From assembly GCA_951406725.2 (NCBI GenBank), contig OX597831.1:5642001-5706000 (forward strand): a stretch of 64,000 nucleotides of DNA, given 5' to 3'. The first letter of the stretch is position 1; each line of letters opens with the position of its first letter. This document shows, piece by piece, positions 2,871-50,964 of the stretch. Made by a program: the position numbers and the translations under genes. This stretch comes from Octopus vulgaris. Lineage: Eukaryota. The notes under the pieces were generated by a model. The model was given only the letters and a program-made list of their open reading frames with translations, was not told the origin of the DNA and made no database searches.

Positions 2871-3809
2871 CTTAAATGAAACTAGATAATGCCAGCATTT
2901 TACCAATGACTCTCTATATATATATTCTGTTAATCTGCATTACAATATATTTAATGTACCACTGCAGCTCCTTGACTGGTTTGTTACCAGATTTCTGTTG
3001 CAATGCACAGCCTTTGTTCCATGTAATTTTGAAAATAGTGATAATTTAGTAAAACGATTTTGCCAGCTTTACATAGGTTTTTAGAATATAAATTAGCATG
3101 AAATTTTAATGGAACCTCTAAATTAAGATCACTTTAACTCTTTTGTTACCATATTTCTGTTGAAATACACAGCCTTTGTTCCAAGTAATTTTGAAAATAA
3201 TGAAGAATTTAATAAAATGATTTTGCCATTATTAATCTTGAGCTTGGAACAGAAATTAGCCTGAAATTTGGATGGAAGATATTAACGCTTTTGTTATCAT
3301 ATTTCTGTTGAGATGCTCTGTGTTTTTTCTTTCAATTAATTTTGAATATAACAAAGAATTTAGTAAAATAGCTTAGTTACCATTAAGCTTGTGTCAGAAA
3401 CATATATTGTGACTAAAGTCTGGTGGAAGATTATAATTCAAGACTTTTGAAAACAAGACATTTGTGCTAAAGAGACCAACAGAAACGTTAGCATGCCGGG
3501 CCTAATGCTTAGCAGTATTTCGTCTGCCGTTACGTTCTGAGTTCAAATTCCACCGAGGTCGACTTTGCCTTCCATCCTTTCAGGGTCGATAAATTAAGTA
3601 CCAGTTACGCACTGGGGTTGATATAATCAACTTAATCCGTTTGTCCTCTCTGTGTTTAGCCCCTTGTGGGTTTCAGCTGGGTTGATATCAAAAGGGATCA
3701 TTTAGATTATTTTAACCCTTTTGTTAAACAATTTTGCCATTATTAAACTTGAGTTTGGAACTTAAATTAGCATGCAATCTTGACGGAAGGTATTAATATT
3801 GACTATTTA

Positions 3810-4346
3810 CATTATTTACATTTGACGGATATTTGTCCTCATCTTGTTTGTTATTAACACAATGTTTCGGCTGATATATCCTCCATCCTTCATCAGGTGT
3901 CTTGATGAAATTTCAAATCTGGGTTATAATTCCTAATGTATTTTTCAATGTTGTTATTATTATTATTATTATTATTCTGTGTTTGACTTTTACTTTACAT
4001 TTGTACAAGTCTCACCCAAAGACCCAAAGTTGGAAATTCATGGTGGTGTTATTATTATTATTATTATTATTCAGGTCACTGCTTGGAATCGAACTTGGAA
4101 TCTTGGGGTTAGTAGCCCACACTCTTAACCACTACGCCATATGCCCATGGTTAATTATAGAGTGAATTTTTAGGGCTTATAAATCTAATATTCTCCTATC
4201 CTTCCTTAATACCGGTTCCCATATGCTGTCCATATCTGCACTCAGTCTGCTTAAGAGATTCTTGTGTCCTAGCATATGTGCTGCTTCTTTTAATCTCCAT
4301 ACTTTCCAGTGGTGTTCTCGGTCTATTATTTTAACTTCATCCCACA
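3810..4346 (-). mobile_element. Penelope-like element 3' end: GIY-YIG C-terminus, tRNA-like cassette, (AAT)n and hammerhead motif
   Basis: ORF 4177-4395 contains VMWDEVKIIDREHHWKVWRLKEAAHM...LSR...IWEPVL, typical of the PLE endonuclease C-terminus; the downstream part recurs at 50523-50956. Confidence 0.75.
3856..3901 (-). ncRNA. Minimal type I hammerhead motif (slightly decayed)
   Basis: Minus strand GACAC-CTGATGA-A-GGATG..CAGCC-GAAA-CATT-GTGTT; stem I GACAC/GTGTT; paralogs at about 50.6 and 50.9 kb give stem II GGCTG and AACGT. Confidence 0.7.
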
Positions 4347-4349
4347 TTA

Positions 4350-4749
4350 CTCTTTTACTTGTTTCTGTCATTTGACTGTGGCCATGCTGGAGCACTGCCT
4401 TTAGTTGAGCAAATCGACCCCGGGACTTATTCTTTGGAAGCCTAGTACTTATTCTATAGGTCTCTTTTGGTGAACCACTAAGTTATGGGGACATAAACAC
4501 ACCAGCATCGGTTGTCAAGCGATGTTGGGGGGACAAACACAGACACACAAACATACACACACTTACATATATATATATACATACATATATACGGCGGGCT
4601 TCTTTCAGTTTCCATCTACCAAATCCACTCACAAGGATTTAGTCGGCCCGAGGCTATAGCAGAAGACACTTGCCCAAGGTGCCATGCAGTGGGACCGAAC
4701 CCAGAACCATGTGGTTTGTAAGCAAGCTACTTACCACACAGCCACTCCT
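4350..4749 (-). mobile_element. tRNA-derived SINE family A (CORE-like), near full length
   Basis: Reverse complement of 30307-30715; truncates the PLE ORF. Confidence 0.9.
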
Positions 4750-5026
4750 ATGTCTATTAACTGTATTAATACAGATCACTTTAAAAAAAAATGTTTGTAT
4801 CATAGAACCAGGAATGGTCTCAGGTGGGCTGCTAATAAAAAGGTTAAATACTTCATAAATATTGCTCTATCTCAGTTGGGCTTTCCTTTGAAAGATCTTG
4901 AACTCTGACACTGAGCACCCTATCCGTTTAACATTGGCTTCCCGAACCACTAAGTTATGGGGATATAAACACACCAGCATCGGTTGTCAAGCGATGTTGG
5001 GAGGACAAACACAGACACACAAACAT

Positions 5027-5058
<32 letters not shown>

Positions 5059-5381
5059 GATGGGCTTTGTTCAGTTTCCATCTACCAAATCCACTCACAA
5101 GGCTTTGGCCGGCCCGAGGCTATAGTAGAAGACACTTGCTCAAGGTACCATGTGGTTCGTAAGCATGCTACTTACCACACAGCCACTCCTATGTCTATTA
5201 ACTGTATTAATACAGATCACTTAAAAAAAAAATGTTTGTATCATAGAACCAGGAATGGTCTCAGGTGGGCTGCTAATAAAAAGGTTAAATACTTCATAAA
5301 TATTGCTCTATCTCAGTTGGGCTTTCCTTTGAAAGATCTTGAACTCTGACACTGAGCACCCTATCCGTTTAACATTGGCTT
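4472..5381. repeat. Local tandem duplication of about 440-470 bp (SINE part plus flank)
   Basis: 4749-4940 is repeated almost identically at 5190-5381, each preceded by the same SINE segment. Confidence 0.9.
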
Positions 5382-6964
5382 TTATCACATTAATATGATA
5401 TCTACTCCGGCTTCTTCCTCCTAGTCAGGTATTTTTTCTACTCTTTGATAAAAAGTTTCATCCGAAATATTAGATCTTCACTGCCTACACAATCCACCTA
5501 TTTGATACATCAATGCAGAATATTCTCTGGTTAACTTTAACAGGCCACAGGCACCGATTTCTTCAAAAATCTGCTGATTATATTATTTAATATTCCTCAC
5601 TTGCTCAGCTTGTCTTGCACACACATGGTAACTGATTCCAGTCAGTAAAGAATCATGTGTGAAAAGCTTTATCACTTTGAAAAATTCTGCTATGCAGCTT
5701 CTTAAATAGCTTCTGGAAGCAATATCAAGTTGGTGCATGATGGAATTCTAAACTTGTATATATTTGTTTCTTTTTTCACAACTTTGCATTTCTGTTTTTT
5801 CTTTCGTATTAAAATGTAGAATGTCTTCCTTCTCAAGCCACAACAACTTAGAGTTTCTATAGTAACATTGTGGGTAAGAGATAAATCTATACCCTTAAAC
5901 AATCCCTCGATCTCAGGCAGGAAACCTGGAATGATAAGTTATTTTTAACCCTTTTTTACCATATTTCTGCTGACATATAATGCCTCAGCTTCGATTAATT
6001 TTTGAAAATAATGGAGAAATCAGTAAAACAACTGTACATACTCTTTACTCTTTTACTTGTTTCAGTCATTTGACTGTGGCCATGCTGGAGCACCGCATTT
6101 AGTCGAACGAATCGACCCCAGGACTTTTTCTTTGTAAGCCTAGTACTTATTCTATCGGTCTCTTTTGCCGAACTGCTAAGTTATGGGGACGTAAACACAC
6201 CAGTATCGGTTGTCAAGCAATGTTGGGGGGACAAACACAGGCATACATACATACATATACATATATATGACGGGCTTCTTTCAGTTTCTGTTTACCAAAT
6301 CCACTCACAAGGCTTTGGTCGGCCCGAGGCTATAGACACTAGCCCAAGCATGCATACAAAAACACACATACTAACCACACAGACACACACACATATGCAA
6401 ACGCATGTACAGATAAGAATACACACCACCAAAAGACAGAATGGACTAAACAGAACAGGAGGAGACACATGGGATGGAGGGTTGCTGAAGAGGTCACAGA
6501 GTGTGTGACAAAATGACTGAAACAAGTAAAAGAGTAATGGTTATAATTTGAACCACTTAAAAGCAACAAACCTATGTCAAAGAACCATGGACAGTCTCAG
6601 ACAGATTGGTGTCAAAACAGTTGAGGCTGTTGTGATCTTTATTCATTTCCCAGACAAGCCAAGTGTCTTATTTGTTCCTTAAAGTTTTATGATTCATTCA
6701 CACTATTTCTTCGAGTGGCAGAATACCTCACATTTCTAAAAAGGATTGTGTAACATTCATGCCTCTCTACAAGTCATTAGTAAGGCATGTGAAACATGTC
6801 TACTTCTAGTGTAGCATCCCACATATGTAATACAATTAGTTGAAAAACTTCAATCAATTAAGAGTATCCAAGCAATTTTTAGTCAAAACCTCTAGGGGTG
6901 TTTAAAATATAAAAACGACGACTAAAAATAACTCAAATTCCATTTCTGTATATGCTGTTTATTC

Positions 6965-10831: not shown

Positions 10832-11060
10832 TTAACCCTTTAATGTTTGCATTATTCTGCCAAAATTAATCCTTTTTTATCCACATTTATTTGAACTAAT
10901 CAGGCATTATCTTGGTGCTATGAGATTTTGATGAGGTAGCTGTTAATTTTTAAAATGATATTGTAGGGTTGGTGTGAGAGACCAGATCTGGCCAGTTTGA
11001 ACATAAAACAGGCAGAATACTTTTGGCTGGACATGGTTAGTTTAAATGCTAAAGGGTTAA
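10832..11060. mobile_element. Second piggyBac-type MITE family (related copy 9126-9358)
   Basis: TTAA|CCCTTTAA...TAAAGGG|TTAA ends. Confidence 0.7.
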
Positions 11061-11117
11061 ATGACTTCACCAGCTGATGAAGACGTGAGCCATTAGAGCC
11101 TAAAAGCAAGGTTTATA

Positions 11118-11420
11118 TCTATATATATAAAACTGAAGTTGTGTGGTGTCTGTCTCCTACGATTTAGATTCCTAACTACTCCCACATTTTGCAGTGCAGT
11201 TTAACCAAAAGCGGGTATCTTATAGTCGTGATTCATATCGAGCCCTTCTGGGTATTAGCGCGCGTCTATGATGAGTCTACGATTTAAAAAAAAATTTACC
11301 ATAATTTTTTTCCATTTTTAATGCATTTTTTTTGCTATTATATAAGGGAAGTAACTCTCTAAAAATGCTTATATATTTATTTCCCTTACAAACCCGAGCA
11401 ACGCCGGGCAATACTGCTAG
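11118..11420 (+). mobile_element. Non-autonomous Helitron
   Basis: A|TC start, subterminal hairpin cccgagcaacgccggg, CTAG|T end, no target-site duplication. Confidence 0.8.
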
Positions 11421-12164
11421 TTATTAATAAAAGAACAAAGCTTCCCACCACAGACAATACTTCAAAACTAAAGATGACAGATGATGTTTAACCCCCATTT
11501 AACATTGATCCAACAGAACCGTCACCAAAGGTAATGGGTCTTTCGTTTTTTTTAAGGTGGTGGAGAGTAATTTGAAATTTGAGAGACATTCAGCTGCTAT
11601 TTCTAGCAGGCTCAGTGATCGAGTACGAGCTCTCTCTCATTGGCTCAATGTCTATCTGGTAATGCAAAATTCTAAGTAATGTCCGTGAGAGGTGTGGCAT
11701 GTGTATGTGTACATGATGTCAGTGACAAGTGTGACCTCCTGCGTGATGCTAATTGACGTGTGTGTGTGAGTGTGTGTGTAAAGTCAAGGACAGACACGGT
11801 ATATGATAGCAGTCTTAGCAGTAATTATGGATAATAATGGTGATGATGATGACGTCAACAATAAGGATAGTGCTGAGTATACTGCACAAAGTTATAATGA
11901 CATGACAATAAAAAACACAAAACTGACATACAGACACACAGACAGACTGTAAATAAATGTTTTAAAAACAACAGAAATTTTTAAAAAATGTACTTTAACC
12001 CTTATAGGATTTGAACTCACAATCTCTGCAAATAAGCTATTATATTCCAGAGTGAGATGGTTGTTCTTCCTACAACAGACACCAACATACCACCACTAGC
12101 AGTAATAAGTACACTACTACCATCACCCCCAATAACAACACCTACACCACCATCGACAACACTA

Positions 12165-12583
12165 CCTATTTCTTTACTATCCACAAGGGGCTAAACACAG
12201 AGAGGACAAACAAGGACAGACAAATGGATTATGTCGATTATATCGACCCCAGTGTGTAACTGGTACTTAATTTATTGACCTCAAAAAAGTTGAAAGGCAA
12301 AGTCGACCTCGGCAGAATTTGAACTCCGAACGTAACGGCAGACGAAATACTTATTTCTTTACTACCCACAAGGGGCTAACACAGAGAGGACAAACAAAGA
12401 CAGATAAATGGATTAAGTCGATTATATCGACCCCAGTGCGTAACTGGTACTTAATTTATTGACCCCAAAAGGGTGAAAGGCAAAGTCGACCTCGGCAGAA
12501 TTTGAACTCAGAATGTAGCGGCAGACAAAATACCGCAAAGCATTTCGCCCGGCGTGCTAACGTTTCTGCCAGCTCGCCGCCTT
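12165..12583 (-). mobile_element. SINE family B, tandem two-unit copy
   Basis: Head plus two ~184-bp units. Confidence 0.9.
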
Positions 12584-13119
12584 ATCAACGACACTACCAC
12601 CACCACCACCACCACCAAAACCACAAATATTATCACCAACAACAACGAACCCACCCCCACTAACATTTCTATCACCAACCCCCATCGTGACCAAACCACA
12701 CCCATCACTACAAGACCACCACCACCACCACCACCATCATCATCACAGACCCAGATAAGAAGCAATCTTCGAGACTTAAAAACTAAGGTTGCCTTGTTGA
12801 TTATCAAACAAAGATGTCTTTCAAACACAGGAAAAGGTATTGAAGAGAATGAGTGGTGGTTGGAGGAGATGACTGATGGAAAGGGTAGGTTACTAGCGTA
12901 TTACTGGTACGTGAATGATTGCAGGAGGTGATTGATGGAATGCAGGTTTCAGACGGATTCCATGTTTTCTCCAACTGCAACAACAACAACAACAGAAACA
13001 AGAACAACAACAACAACAGCAGCAACAACAACGGTAACAACAACAACAACATGATTGATGTAATTAGTGTGGCATTAAGTAATTGTAGTATTTAACTAAG
13101 AGAGAAACAAGCACTTTAT

Positions 13120-13305
13120 TGGACGGAACTAATGGTGTGTCTGACGGAATTAGCAGAGTGTCTGACAGAACTGACAATATGTCTGACAGAATTGCTAGTT
13201 TGTCTGACAGAATGGGCATTGTGTTTGACAGAATTGACAGTTTATCTGACGTAATTGGAAATATGTCTATCAGAATTGGCAGTGTGTCTGATTGAATTGG
13301 CATTT
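13120..13305. repeat. ~21-bp degenerate minisatellite
   Basis: Unit close to tgtctgacagaattggcagtg, about 9 copies. Confidence 0.8.
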
Positions 13306-15654
13306 TGGTATGATGCAGAAAGGACCGGGTGCACTCTGATAAATGGTTGGTGTTAGAAAAAGGCATCCAGTCATAGAAACCATGCCAAAGCAGACATTGG
13401 AGTTCGGCACAGTCGTCTGGATTGCCAGCTGCAGTCAAACTGTCCAACCCATGCCAGCATGGAAAATGGATGTTAAACAGTGACAATGATGGTGATAATG
13501 ATGAGTTGTGATGTGCTCTTGTAATCCAGCTAGAAAGAATCTTGGTTGATTTCGAAATGGGAAGCTTGGTAAGTTGATCTTCTATTGTGAACAGATGTCC
13601 ACAGTGAGCTTGTCATGAAGGTAGTGCTGGTAAGGATGCTCCCCCAGCACCAGATTCACTTCCTTGACAGCAGCAGGGCATATTTCAGCTGATTCTGACT
13701 TGAAGAATTGAGTTTGTTGGAGAAAAGAAAAAAAAAATGTCTTTGTGAAGTAAGGAGAAATTTGCCCTGAAACACCTTTGCAACTATCAGACTAAAATAC
13801 TTCTAATACTGGCATCAGACTCCTGCAGCAGCAACAACACCATCATCATCATCATCATCATCATCATTATCCCCACAAGCAACAACAACAACTGCAATGA
13901 AAACCTAGTTTCATGTGAAATATAAATTTAAGAATAGAATATGAAACAGATACTTGAGTTAACAGATGATCTGAGAGATTTCTCAAACACCTCTTCAGGT
14001 TCTGAATTCAATTCGTCCTTCAGCAGTTTGGATTTGGTTTGTTTCTCTTTCCAAAGTTCAGTTCCATGGCACAGCCATATTGCAAACCAAAAGACTAATT
14101 CCTAACAAGTAACTAAATTACTCTGGCATGGAAGGAATAAACAGTGGTAGAATGAGACTAAAAATAACATAGAACTGTGGATGAGAGGTGGTGAGAGTAG
14201 ATACTTAAATAGAATATCAGTTACCATCAGTTCTACATTCTACTATAAGTTCACCACCAGATGAGACTAAAAACTAAAACAGACTAAAAGGGAAAAGGAA
14301 AGACAAATAAAACAAGGTATTATTGAGATGATAATCGGAGATAAAGAAATATTGTATGTGTGTGTATCTCGGTGATAAATTTACAAAATAAAAATTTAGA
14401 AAAAAAGAGAAAAAATATATACAATTTGGTTTGAGAATAGGACTGGAACTGAAATAATATCTTTTTAAAATCATTATCACCACCCATGACCATCACTACC
14501 AACACCCGCTTCCTCACAACCTCCAATGTTACCCATCATTGTCATCATCATCAACAACACCACTACCACCACTACCACAACCACGATTCATTAATTACCA
14601 CAGCCACAACCACCACCAACACCACCACCATTAATAACAACACTATCATCATCATCATCATCATCGGCGTCTGCGTCAAAAGGAGGTTTTATGTTGCTTG
14701 TTTCTTTGATATCAGTCCTAAAGCTGGACACAAAGTCTCCACACCATTATCACAACGCATTCAGACACTGGTGTAGAACTCGGCGGCAAACAATCAGCTA
14801 AGTAATTCTCATTTCTCATTTCGCTATTCCTCACACAACGCAGAACTAAAACAATCATTTCTTGTGATCTAAGTTACAAGCAATTACTGTCTTTTCACTT
14901 CCTGCAGAACTCGACCAGTTTCTCAACTGGGACCATATTTTCCGGCATACAAGTCAATGTAGTGCATAGTGTAAACCTGCAGCATAAACATTCAAACTGC
15001 ATTACTATATGTCCAAACCCTGCTGCATTTCATAGCAGACAATATTTACTGATAACACTGAATGTTGTGCAGTGGGTAGGTACAGGTTTAAAAGCGTTGC
15101 TGAAGGAGTAGATCCTTGTGTTACACCATTTAAGTTGTCATCATCATCATCGCCGCCACCATATTAGCACTAATTTTTCCATGCTTGCATGAGTCAGATA
15201 CAGTTTATTCAAGCAAATTTTCTACGACTGGATGCCCTTCCTGTCACCAACCCTCACCTGTTTCCAAATAAGATAATAACTTCCCCATGGACAGACAGGT
15301 CTTCATAGAAGATTGGAAATGAAGGACACTGCTTCCATGGAGCCTGGTGCAGCTGTCTGGTTCGCTAGTCCTCAGTCAAATCGTCCAACCCATGCTAGCA
15401 TGGAAAGCAGGCGTTAAACGATGATGATGATATATATATATAAATATATATATGTATATATATGTGTGTGTGTGTATGACAGATTTCTTTCAGTTTCTGC
15501 CTAACAAATCCACTTACAAGGCTTTGGTTGGCTCAATGCAATGGTAGAAAACACTCTCCAAAGGTGCCATGTAGTGGAACTGAACCCAGAACCATGTTAC
15601 AGGGAAGCAAACTTCTTACCACACAGCCACACACTCATATGTATGTATGTATGT

Positions 15655-22680: not shown

Positions 22681-23466
22681 AGGTGGCGAGCTGGCAGAAA
22701 CGTTAGCACGCCGGGCGAAATGTGTAGCCGTATTTCGTCTGCCGTTACGTTCTGAGTTCAAATTCCACCGAGGTCGACTTTGCCTTTCATCCTTTCGGGG
22801 TCGATAAATTAAGTACCAGTTACGCACTGGGATCAATGTAATCGACTTAATCCCTTTGTCTGTCCTTGTTTGTCCCCTCTGTGTTTAGCCCCTTGTGGGT
22901 AGTAAAGAAATAGGTATTTCGTCTGCCGTTACGTTCTGAGTTCAAATTCCACCGAGGTCGACTTTGCCTTTCATCCTTTCGGGGTCGATGAATTAAGTAC
23001 CAGTTACGCACTGGGATCAATGTAATCGACTTAATCCCTTTGTCTGTCCTTGTTTGTCCCCTCTGTGTTTAGCCCCTTGTGGGTAGTAAAGAAATAGGTA
23101 TTTCGTCTGCCGTTACGTTCTGAGTTCAAATTCCGCCGAGGTCGACTTTGCCTTCCATCCTTTCGGGGTCAATAAATTAAGTACCAGTTACGCACTGGGA
23201 TCAATGTAATCAACTTAATCCCTTTGTCTGTCCTCGTTTGTCCCCTCTGTGTTTAGCCCCTTGTGGGTAGTAAAGAAATAGGTATTTCGTCTGCCGTTAC
23301 GTTCTGAGTTCAAATTCCTCCAAGGTCGACTTTGCCTTTCATCCTTTCGGGGTCGATAAATTAAGTACCAGTTACGCACTGGGATCAATGTAATCGACTT
23401 AATCCCTTTGTCTGTCCTTGTTTGTCCCCTCTGTGTTTAGCCCCTTGTGGGTAGTAAAGAAATAGG
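22681..23466 (+). mobile_element. SINE family B (Meta-domain-like): one head plus four 184-bp units
   Basis: tatttcgtctgccg at 22731, 22915, 23099 and 23283; B box gagttcaaattcc; core gcctttcatcctttcggggtcgataaattaagtaccag resembles the Meta domain. Confidence 0.92.
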
Positions 23467-23927
23467 TATATATATATATAATGATACATATGTTTCGAGT
23501 GGTTATGTAATGAGTGGTTATGCAGTTCTCCACTTTCGTCAGTTGCTTCAGGCTTGAAATGACCGACAAAAGTGGATGACTGCATAACCTCTTGAAAAGT
23601 GCAGATCATTAAATGCATCTCAAAGTACCAATTATTGGTTTCTGTGATTGTTCAAATATTATGAGACTCATATTTCTGACAATCTGTTCTACCTTTTGCA
23701 TGGATAACATAATTACTAAGCAATATGGCAGAGGAGTGAAATGTCGATCTAAACATTGACTCTGAAATATCTGGTAATGCATTCTATTAAATGTAAGTGT
23801 GTGTGTGTTTGTGTGTGTATATACATGTACGCTCACACACATACACATATACATGCATATATATTTATACATACACATACATTTACATACACAAACACAC
23901 ATATACATACATACATACATACACATA

Positions 23928-39493: not shown

Positions 39494-40384
39494 CAGTGGT
39501 TCTCCACCAGAGTCCACATGACCCATGGGGTCCACATAAGATGGCTCAGTGGTTAGAGCGTCAGGCTGACAATCACAAGGTAGTGAGTTCGATTCCTGAG
39601 CTGGGCTGTGTGTTATGTTCTTAAGCAAGACACTCTACTTCACGTTGCTCCAGTTCACTCAGCGGTAGAAATGAGCCGCGACGTCACTGGTGCCAAGCTG
39701 TATCAGCCTTTGCCTTTCCCTTGGATAATATCAATGGCGTGGAGATGAGAGGCTGGTATGCATGGGCGACTGCTGGTCTCCCATAAACAACCTCACCCAG
39801 ACATGTGCCTTGGAGGGTAACTTTCTAAGTGCAACCCCATGATCATAAAAGTGTGTGTGTGTGTGTGTGTGTGTATGAAGGTACATGGCTCAGTGACCAA
39901 AGCGTCGGGCTCACAATCATGAAGGAATGAGTTCAATTCCCCTACCGGGCTGCATGTTGTGTTCTTGAGCAAGGTACTTTATTTCAAATTGCTCCAGTTA
40001 ACTCAGCTGTAGAAACTGAGTTGCGACATCACTGGTGCCAAGCTGTATCAGCCCCTTTGCCTTTCCCTTGGATAATATCAATGGCATGGCAATGAGAGGC
40101 TGGTATGCATGGGCGACTGCTGGTCTTCCATAAACAACCTCACCTGGACTTGTCCCTCACAGGGGAACTTTCTAGGTGTAATCCCTTAGTCATTCATGAC
40201 TGAAGGGGTCTTAACTTCGACAATACATTAAATATTCTCACAGATTTTTAAATACAGTTTCTTACAACATTTAATTATATTAATGTAACAGGATTTTCTT
40301 AAACAACAAATGGCTATGAGGGACCATTCGAGTGAAATAGGGAACTAAGGGGTCCACAGGTAAAAAAATGGTTGAGACCCACTG
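39494..40384. mobile_element. hAT-like MITE carrying two tandem copies of SINE family D (39541-39846, 39878-40210)
   Basis: TIRs CAGTGGTTCTCCACC / GGTTGAGACCCACTG; SINE A box TGGCTCAGTGG, B box GTTCGATTCC, CORE-like ttgagcaag segment. Confidence 0.8.
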
Positions 40385-49840: not shown

Positions 49841-50522
49841 AAATAAATAAATAAAATTCTCATATTAATTTCATCAGGTCGTCACTGGAGCAAATATCAC
49901 TGCAGGTCGGACCCAACATTAAAGTGTTGTCACCTTGGTATAAGTTCATTAAGGTTCTGTCCTCAGCCTCCTCCTATTCATTGTAACCCACCAAGCTGTA
50001 ATACCTCTCCAGGGTACTCAAGTTCTAGCTGAATCTAGCACAGAAATAACAGAAGTGATTCCAAACATGAAAGCAAAACTTGCAATCTAATAATACAGGT
50101 CTATATTTAAGAGATGAGGAATTATGTATATGATGTACATTATTTACAGGAGTGGCTGTGTGGTAAGTAGCTTGCTAACCAACCACATGGTTCCGGGTTC
50201 AGTCCCAGTGCTTGGCATCTTGGGCAAGTGTCTTCTGCTATAGCCCCAGGCCGACCAATGCCTTGTGAGTGGATTTGGTAGACGGAAACTGAAAGAAACC
50301 TGTCGTATATATGTATATATATATGTATATGTGTTTGTCCCCCTAGCATTGCTTGACAACCGATGCTGGTGTGTTTACGTCCCCGTCACTTAGCGGTTCC
50401 GCAAAAGAGACCGACAGAATAAGTACTGGGCTTACAAAGAATAAGTCCCGGGGTCGATTTGCTTGACTAAAGGTGGTGCTCCAGCATGGCTGCAGTCAAA
50501 TGACTGAAACAAGTAAAAGAGT

Positions 50523-50658
50523 ATTTACATTTGACGGATATTTGTCCTCATCTTGTTTGTTGTTAACACGTTTTGGCCCGTTTACTCTCCAGCCTTCATC
50601 AGGTGTCTTGGGGAAATTTCGAACCTGGGTTCTCATTCCTAAGGTATTTTTACGATGT

Positions 50659-50690
<32 letters not shown>

Positions 50691-50956
50691 CTACTATTAT
50701 TATTCAGGTCACTGCTTGGAATCAAACTCAGAATCTTGGGGTTAGTAGTCCATGCTCTTAGCCACTACACCATATGCCCCAAGATTCCGAGTTTGATTCC
50801 AGGCAGTGACCTGATTAATAATAATAATAATAATACCTTAGGAATGAGAACCCAGGTTTGAAATTTCCCCAAGACACCTGATGAAGGCTGGAGGGTAAAC
50901 AGACCAAAACGTTAACAACAAACAAGATGAGGACAAATATCCATCTAATGTAAATA
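50523..50956. mobile_element. Inverted dimer of the PLE terminus seen at 3810-4146
   Basis: Arms about 50523-50741 and 50777-50956; both carry gacacCTGATGAaggctg with GAAA decayed to AAAA. Confidence 0.85.
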
Positions 50957-50964
50957 ATTGAAAT

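Follow-up and report, generated by a model that had tools for sequence, protein, structure and literature searches.

A tRNA-like block with Pol III promoter boxes in the pseudo-LTR of a Penelope-type element of Octopus vulgaris

In the 64,000-nt stretch of Octopus vulgaris DNA analysed here (contig OX597831.1, positions 5,642,001 to 5,706,000; called the window below), a tRNA-like block lies on the minus strand between the end of an endonuclease gene and a hammerhead motif, and this raises the question whether the block is a stray SINE or a part of a Penelope-like element (PLE), and by which polymerase the RNA of such an element was made. The locus itself is the decayed 3' end of a Penelope/Poseidon-type PLE, a dead fragment of a family that is abundant in octopus. 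From 4346 to 3804 on the minus strand, the C-terminus of the endonuclease is followed by a stop codon, the tRNA-like block, an (AAT)n run and the first codons of the ORF with a minimal hammerhead (Table 1). The terminal peptide is 51% identical (25/49, E 3e-15) to the C-terminus of an 847-aa protein with RT and endonuclease (P0007), a PLE match that confirms the preliminary description of this DNA in calling the locus a PLE terminus.

Table 1 Features of the two pseudo-LTR loci in the window (block positions are counted from the first nucleotide of the tRNA-like block, +1)
Feature	Position	Strand	Remarks
PLE ORF, 56 terminal codons and stop (C-terminal end of the GIY-YIG endonuclease)	4177..4346	-	Stop at 4179-4177; peptide 4346-4180
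Short 3' UTR	4153..4176	-	Missing in most short copies
5' boundary of most copies and small hairpin, positions -6/-7 to +5	4142..4152	-	Hairpin mutated in the window copy
tRNA-like block	4072..4146	-	A box at 4139-4129, anticodon-like arm at 4118-4106, B box at 4096-4085; acceptor stem and T stem disrupted
(AAT)n run	3953..4071	-	Interrupted by a private 66-nt insert, about 4043-3978
First ORF codons, the 3' half of the pseudo-LTR	3804..3930	-	Of the two end sites favoured in the family, the window copy stops at the first
Minimal type I hammerhead inside the ORF start	3856..3901	-	CTGATGA 3896-3890, GAAA 3868-3865, predicted cut after 3861
Pseudo-LTR without ORF, beginning exactly at block +1	50522..50779	-	Tail at about 50098-50149, past an inserted SINE
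Inverted, 5'-shortened arm of the same insertion, beginning near block +39	50777..50964	+	Head-to-head with the pseudo-LTR above

The window copy is 89% identical to the family consensus. It is 5'-truncated at 4346, where the tail of an unrelated SINE adjoins, and a 101-aa stop-to-stop frame at 4482-4177 is a chimera of this SINE tail and the PLE peptide. The start codon has been mutated to ATT (3930-3928), the hammerhead carries two lesions (one mismatch in stem II, and CA instead of CG in helix III), and the insert in the AAT run was found whole in this copy only, among the loci searched.

The family was collected by searching the 2.8-Gb genome with the window finding, which gave 6383 candidates, of which 40 were scored. 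The order of a unit is block, (AAT)n, ATG, hammerhead, an ORF of about 805 codons with RT and GIY-YIG domains, stop, 30 nt and the next block, in total about 2.6 kb. In copies of the ORF 5' end, the ATG stands about 23 nt past the AAT run, codons 10-25 encode the hammerhead, and the frame continues. Longer copies reach upstream into the RT (RVT_1, E 1e-6 to 3e-6, just under the cut-off) and the start of the GIY-YIG domain. Pfam gave no direct match for the 56-aa window peptide or for the endonuclease pieces of the family; a 569-aa open frame (copy L373) aligns at 39% with another protein, P0053, through the GIY-YIG region of the latter, which passes the Pfam cut-off. By eye, the translation of L373 is devoid of the Zn-finger-like linker between RT and endonuclease, unlike Neptune and Nematis. 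A pseudo-LTR that includes the first ORF codons, tandem and inverted arrangements and an optional tail are all present. On the basis of domain order, pseudo-LTR and hammerhead, the family can be assigned to the PLEs, and its layout is that of the Penelope/Poseidon type; its nearest named protein matches are uncharacterised proteins of sea urchin, lamprey, lizard and insect, and the closest named match of the window peptide is labelled Octopus vulgaris. The RVT_1 matches of the genome are dominated by LINEs of a young family (loci L518-L540), which has numerous open frames about 949 aa long.

Copies of the PLE are 82-93% identical to the consensus, most of them near 90%, and no intact ORF was found in this family, which is about 10% diverged. 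An exact 22-mer of the hammerhead occurs 6719 times in the genome, and with 37 of 132 segments carrying it exactly, the number of ribozyme-bearing segments can be estimated at about 24,000, which is likely a floor. A piece of the family is present in 9 of 40 evenly spaced 10-kb stretches of the genome. The arrangement is also shared, since contigs of three other organisms bridge the end of the ORF and the block.

The tRNA-like block retains an A box and a B box at tRNA spacing, both intact in the window copy and both matching the consensus of type 2 Pol III promoters. A pattern running from A box to B box has two matches in the window (4139, minus, and 39542, plus), compared with a mean of 0.0 in 200 dinucleotide resamples; the second match marks the start of a 347-nt tandem unit present in 1.9 copies (39541-40185, plus), which is another tRNA-headed repeat. 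ARAGORN and Rfam reported neither a tRNA nor a ribozyme at the PLE locus, a cloverleaf fold of the block was not obtained (z +1.74), and the block fails as a functional tRNA gene. The stems of the tRNA were thus lost while the boxes were kept. Conservation of the boxes across copies is uninformative in this respect, because the copies decay neutrally.

Several observations show that the block belongs to the pseudo-LTR as a constant component and is not an inserted SINE. When loci were anchored just upstream of the block, 29 of 30 run into it, some with internal deletions, and the remaining one breaks at +5; by eye, no target-site duplication was seen around the block itself. The block is also present in all 30 loci found with the whole window finding, a figure that is biased by the query. 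Starting from the block, 124 of 154 copies have the ATG and hammerhead part within 550 nt, and most of the other 30 have long AAT runs or later insertions. The claim that the tRNA block belongs to the family and is no one-off SINE insertion is therefore sustained by the upstream-anchored loci and the missing target-site duplication. No family without the tRNA block surfaced as a sister in the genome among the top matches of two protein searches, in which the 30 loci found with P0007 and the 28 new loci found with P0019 all belong to this PLE family. Likewise, the A/B-box pattern was found near the ends of none of 56 related ORFs from metagenome contigs, some of which have little flanking sequence; in these ORFs a hammerhead often lies about 50-110 nt past the stop. 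The absence of the pattern from the related ORFs and of a tRNA-less sister indicates that the block is an addition of this PLE lineage.

As to the origin of the block, its best match among 35 tRNA sequences of 10 types is Arg(TCG), with 46 of 74 positions, and the heads of three other SINEs in the window match it weakly (43-45/74). The anticodon-like loop (4116-4109, minus) is one change away from that of tRNA-Arg(TCT); its sequence, TACTAAC, agrees perfectly with a branch-point motif and lies 26 nt upstream of a CAG. Octopus tRNA-derived SINEs named OK, OR1 and OR2 were reportedly described by Ohshima and Okada in 1994, OR1 and OR2 being derived from Arg. These SINEs would resemble the present block in having a tRNA-derived head, in occurring in the same animal group and, given its best match, in the link to Arg.

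The hammerhead has the features listed for minimal type I ribozymes (PMC4209133), namely the core boxes, an extra base before helix II, a helix I of 4-5 bp and a palindromic 15.2-16.2 pair; ribozymes of this class are expected to cleave themselves as dimers or with the help of a protein. A descriptor of this form has one match in the window (3901, minus), as compared with a mean of 0.0 in 200 dinucleotide resamples, and is fitted by 73 of 156 family segments, 28 of the 156 having the CG pair together with a full stem. Minimum-energy folds do not yield the hammerhead, as expected for a form without helix III. The predicted cut lies after ATG+70, and an RNA ending at this site had been postulated in the preliminary description. 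The copies do not support this: of 165 with a hammerhead, 86 end at ATG+120-139 and 52 at ATG+155-174, which is 50-100 nt beyond the predicted cut, and the few shorter ones are mostly internal deletions. Neither do 5' ends pile up at the predicted cut. The hammerhead cut does not define the template of retrotransposition. A single copy (L215) has a 16-nt insert exactly at the predicted cut, which possibly derives from an RNA that was cut and religated.

The other end of the copies was surveyed with exact matches to the pattern at +57..+78, taken in order of position over the first 65 Mb of one contig (C1), which gave 92 matches at 90 loci out of 3778 matches genome-wide; both arms of inverted pairs were counted, and the upstream rates were derived from 28 upstream-anchored loci. 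Most copies begin in a narrow interval: 54 of the 92 start in -7..+10 and another 27 further in, 8 extend into the ORF, and the 3 that were scored at -40..-8 resemble, by eye, fold-back or chance extension. Per nucleotide, the end rate amounts to 12.1% at -7..-1 and 4.0% at +1..+10, compared with 0.67-0.87% inside and 0.61% and 0.21% upstream, and it becomes 9.9% and 5.9% in the two boundary intervals if 18 clean hairpin fold-backs are left out. Exact counts over the whole genome show the same step, with 1053 just upstream of the block and 3155 at +1..+22, or, after correction for decay, about 2,700 upstream and 11,000-14,000 at the start of the block. The boundary of the DNA copies is located 13-14 nt before the A box, the G at -6 being 13 nt before it; Pol III usually starts 10-20 nt upstream of an A box. 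RNase P-type cutting at +1 was rejected as the main cause of the boundary, as many copies retain -6..-1 and the acceptor stem is broken.

Pol III terminates at runs of four or more T, and the 2572-nt sense consensus of the family does not contain a single TTTT. Codon-preserving shuffles of the coding part lead to an expectation of 3.1 (P 0.015 and 0.019 in two runs), and a dinucleotide model gives P 0.074. Runs of A, C and G are near expectation, those of G being absent as well with 1.0 expected. Related sequences are richer in TTTT, with a median of 4.3 per kb among the 56 related ORFs, of which one has none, and with at least two in each of 30 LINE ORFs of the same genome (four groups), a comparison that sets the consensus of one family against single copies of others. 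Single copies of the octopus family have 0.39 TTTT per kb (98 segments; L373 has 3), and 3 of the 56 related ORFs, with an observed/expected ratio of 0.3 or less, are as depleted as these. The missing TTTT agrees with read-through of the ORF by Pol III and would lend modest support to it.

It is more probable than not, in our judgement, that Pol III made the retrotransposed RNA of this PLE family. The preliminary description had already inferred a Pol III promoter in the pseudo-LTR, and this appears to be the likeliest reading of promoter boxes that were kept, a sharp start boundary and a sense consensus free of TTTT. Transcription would start at the G at -6, with Pol III using the A and B boxes, and the transcript could traverse the ORF, the sense strand being free of TTTT. 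By analogy with Poseidon_Ac (PAc) of the green anole, the RT-endonuclease would then introduce a nick into AT-rich DNA and begin to reverse-transcribe within the ORF start, at about ATG+120-135 or +155-175. The two clusters of 3' ends in octopus fit this analogy, since reverse transcription of PAc is described to begin at two sites inside the ORF start, with uncut RNA as the main substrate (PMC11167929). If initiation takes place in the first pseudo-LTR, just about 250-300 nt would be copied up to the 5' end of the RNA, giving abundant short copies that look like SINEs, whereas initiation in a downstream tandem pseudo-LTR would give 5'-truncated copies with ORF sequence, such as that at 4346-3804. 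The boundary carries a small hairpin across -7..+5, with a stem of 5 bp and a loop of 2 nt; the end of the cDNA could fold back on it, and this would produce an inverted arm and head-to-head pairs. Protein may be made from the uncapped RNA itself or from Pol II read-through of a copy.

A bolder version of this proposal is that in an autonomous coding retrotransposon a Pol III promoter of the tRNA type took the place of the Pol II promoter and all Pol III terminators were purged from the 2.6-kb unit, so that an uncapped Pol III RNA serves both as message and as template and leaves tens of thousands of SINE-looking by-products; this we advance tentatively, as a possibility that is more doubtful than probable. 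A coding Pol III RNA of 2.6 kb, as proposed, would far exceed in length the SINEs or the TRIMp3 elements as described in PMC10886601, and this counts against Pol III. Cap-independent translation has been tied to self-cleaving ribozymes in RNA viruses and is cited for HDV-like ribozymes of retrotransposons (PMC13725137); compared with the systems presented there, the predicted cut in the octopus PLE lies after the ATG.

The boundary does not by itself name the polymerase, since rotifer PLEs that have putative Pol II motifs share such ends, their pseudo-LTRs having defined palindromic 5' ends (PMC3846280). A Pol II start at the boundary, as in Penelope of D. virilis, would solve the problem of translation. 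The block would in that case stem from the head of a tRNA or SINE that was captured, now forming part of the 5' UTR and perhaps kept as a short intron, and its Pol III boxes would be incidental. According to PMC8557442, the pseudo-LTR contains the start site, the internal promoter and an intron of the 5' UTR in both Penelope and Chlamys-3, the start site and internal promoter of Penelope being located where the octopus block stands. The branch-point-like motif 26 nt before the CAG would suit an intron, and 3 of 29 deletions across the block, collected genome-wide, fit a precise loss of +12..+64. However, the putative intron would be just 53 nt long and its donor weak, the remaining deletions form a mixed set of microhomology events, and there was no GT-AG joint among 15 inspected of 92 joints in RNA reads. 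Spliced copies were rejected, as no precise junction recurs. A Pol II start also gives no reason for the missing TTTT. Against it speak further the retention of the boxes despite the loss of the tRNA stems and the position of the boundary, whose spacing to the A box is that usual for Pol III. Altogether we consider it unlikely.

Still less likely, and in our opinion rather improbable, is that no promoter is involved at all and that long read-through RNAs served as templates on which reverse transcription stopped or folded back at the hairpin or at a tRNA-like fold. Self-priming of PLEs at palindromes is discussed in PMC3846280, and in octopus 18 of the 92 surveyed ends are clean hairpin fold-backs at -7; genome-wide, perfect fold-backs on the hairpin account for 866 strand matches, mostly two per locus, as compared with 484 read-through junctions at the boundary. 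But fold-back priming at the hairpin implies a template that reaches -6 or -7 and ends there, and the ends that are no fold-backs also cluster in -7..+10, at about ten times background. A hairpin of this size and a block without a stable fold are poor obstacles, and neither the boxes nor the missing TTTT would find an explanation.

RNA data were available from a related species, in the form of three runs from one study of which about 6% each was sampled. Read depth is in the hundreds over the pseudo-LTR and the ORF end and below 20 over the remaining ORF, with both directions equally represented, and 86-88% of the aligned reads continue into unlike sequence. No pile of read starts at the block was seen in these samples. 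The signal looks like passive transcription of scattered copies and speaks neither for nor against a short Pol III RNA.

The short copies, which outnumber those linked to the ORF by about 4-5 to 1, are the element's own solo or inverted pseudo-LTRs. A separate lineage of SINEs mobilised by the PLE, as had been suggested at first, should have left diagnostic variants, but in the block no non-CpG variant of note separates 88 short from 77 ORF-linked copies, and in the ORF-start part the same holds for 58 short and 59 ORF-linked copies. The CpG of the B box (C56) is decayed in 12 of 88 short and 28 of 77 ORF-linked copies, a difference that the choice of exact anchors can explain. Inverted pairs, rather than tandem arrays of units, dominate the loci seen. 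An independent tRNA-derived SINE family was rejected, the unit being the pseudo-LTR of a coding element, and so was membership of the non-LTR retrozyme or SM-alpha class. Schistosome SM-alpha is presented in PMC6765202 as a Pol III SINE that carries a hammerhead. An octopus counterpart, namely an independent Pol III SINE or retrozyme that is processed by its hammerhead, has master copies of its own and borrows the PLE protein, is very improbable, since variants are shared, copies neither begin nor end at the cut and tandem arrays do not prevail, even though short copies are in excess and an intact one has the boxes and the 3' end sites that secondary rounds would need. Secondary amplification from short copies is possible.

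To our knowledge, protein-coding retrotransposons are held to be Pol II transcripts, or Pol I co-transcripts in the case of R2, and Pol III is held to serve only short non-coding SINEs and TRIMs. If the Pol III reading is correct, a PLE with a tRNA-type promoter would break this division, and it would show how SINE-like repeats that combine a tRNA head with a hammerhead, as in SM-alpha, can arise directly from a coding element. For annotation, 'tRNA SINEs' of about 300 nt of such a kind in octopus genomes are pseudo-LTRs of Penelope elements. The sharp 5' boundary and the two 3' end sites can further be read as a genomic record of the PLE template, that is, a sense RNA, not cut by the ribozyme, on which copying began at internal sites and folded back at the 5' end. 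This record bears on the origin of head-to-head PLE insertions, a point that is left open in the account of PMC3846280.

Much of the anatomy is known from other Penelope/Poseidon elements. As presented in the respective sources, PAc (PMC11167929), Penelope of D. virilis (PMC8557442) and Pen2a of Adineta (PMC3846280) share with the octopus family a single ORF with RT and C-terminal GIY-YIG domains, a pseudo-LTR that holds the first codons and a minimal hammerhead, inverted pseudo-LTRs joined at palindromes, two 3' end sites separated by about 35-45 nt (the tail) and a hammerhead cut that is not used as template end. The octopus element differs from these accounts in that the block occupies the place of their Pol II-type promoter or intron, and in the absence of TTTT from the sense strand. 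Pol III promoters derived from small RNAs are found in the terminal repeats of the TRIMp3 elements Cassandra, Helenus and Ajax, where boxes were also kept and the RNA fold lost, and for which insertion of a SINE into the repeat is the proposed origin (PMC10886601). Unlike TRIMp3, which that source describes as non-autonomous LTR elements of 0.3-1.3 kb, the octopus promoter candidate lies in a PLE pseudo-LTR directly upstream of its own ORF. Schistosome SM-alpha and the non-LTR retrozymes of animals (PMC6765202, PMC4918200, PMC7229834, bioRxiv 10.64898/2026.07.22.740005) likewise consist of units of about 300 nt in which a tRNA-like sequence or Pol III promoter is combined with a type I hammerhead, and they are linked to PLE pseudo-LTRs. 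In these descriptions, however, they are non-coding tandem repeats that the ribozyme cuts into monomers, whereas the octopus unit is part of a coding element and occurs in dispersed inverted pairs with ends that ignore the cut. In the literature we found no PLE pseudo-LTR described as having a tRNA-like promoter; this search covered neither Repbase and Dfam nor subscription papers and supplements, and a database record may exist. New are the sharp start boundary of the copies, 13-14 nt before the A box, and the sense consensus free of TTTT.

A second locus in the window illustrates the short form. At 50.5-50.9 kb, where the order of tRNA block, (AAT)n and hammerhead had been noted to recur, pseudo-LTRs are indeed present, although their actual form is a head-to-head pair without ORF. 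At the end of this pseudo-LTR (50.1-51.0 kb) a SINE copy, 50147-50523, has been inserted within 9-nt repeats, splitting off the tail. It belongs to an abundant tRNA-headed SINE with a GT-rich middle, many other copies of which are located in the window, among them those at 4347-4757 (minus) and 6045-6353, the first of these being the one that abuts the truncated PLE.

Local tandem repeats were also encountered. One copy of the PLE (L589, G000:C2:16238300-16238950) contains five tandem 150-nt repeats, which extend over the end of the ORF and up to position +31 of the block. In the window, a near-perfect tandem duplication of about 250 nt at 4771-5198 includes the head and part of the body of a SINE, and at 22730-23469 a SINE-derived unit of 184 nt is present four times in tandem, the units being 97% alike.
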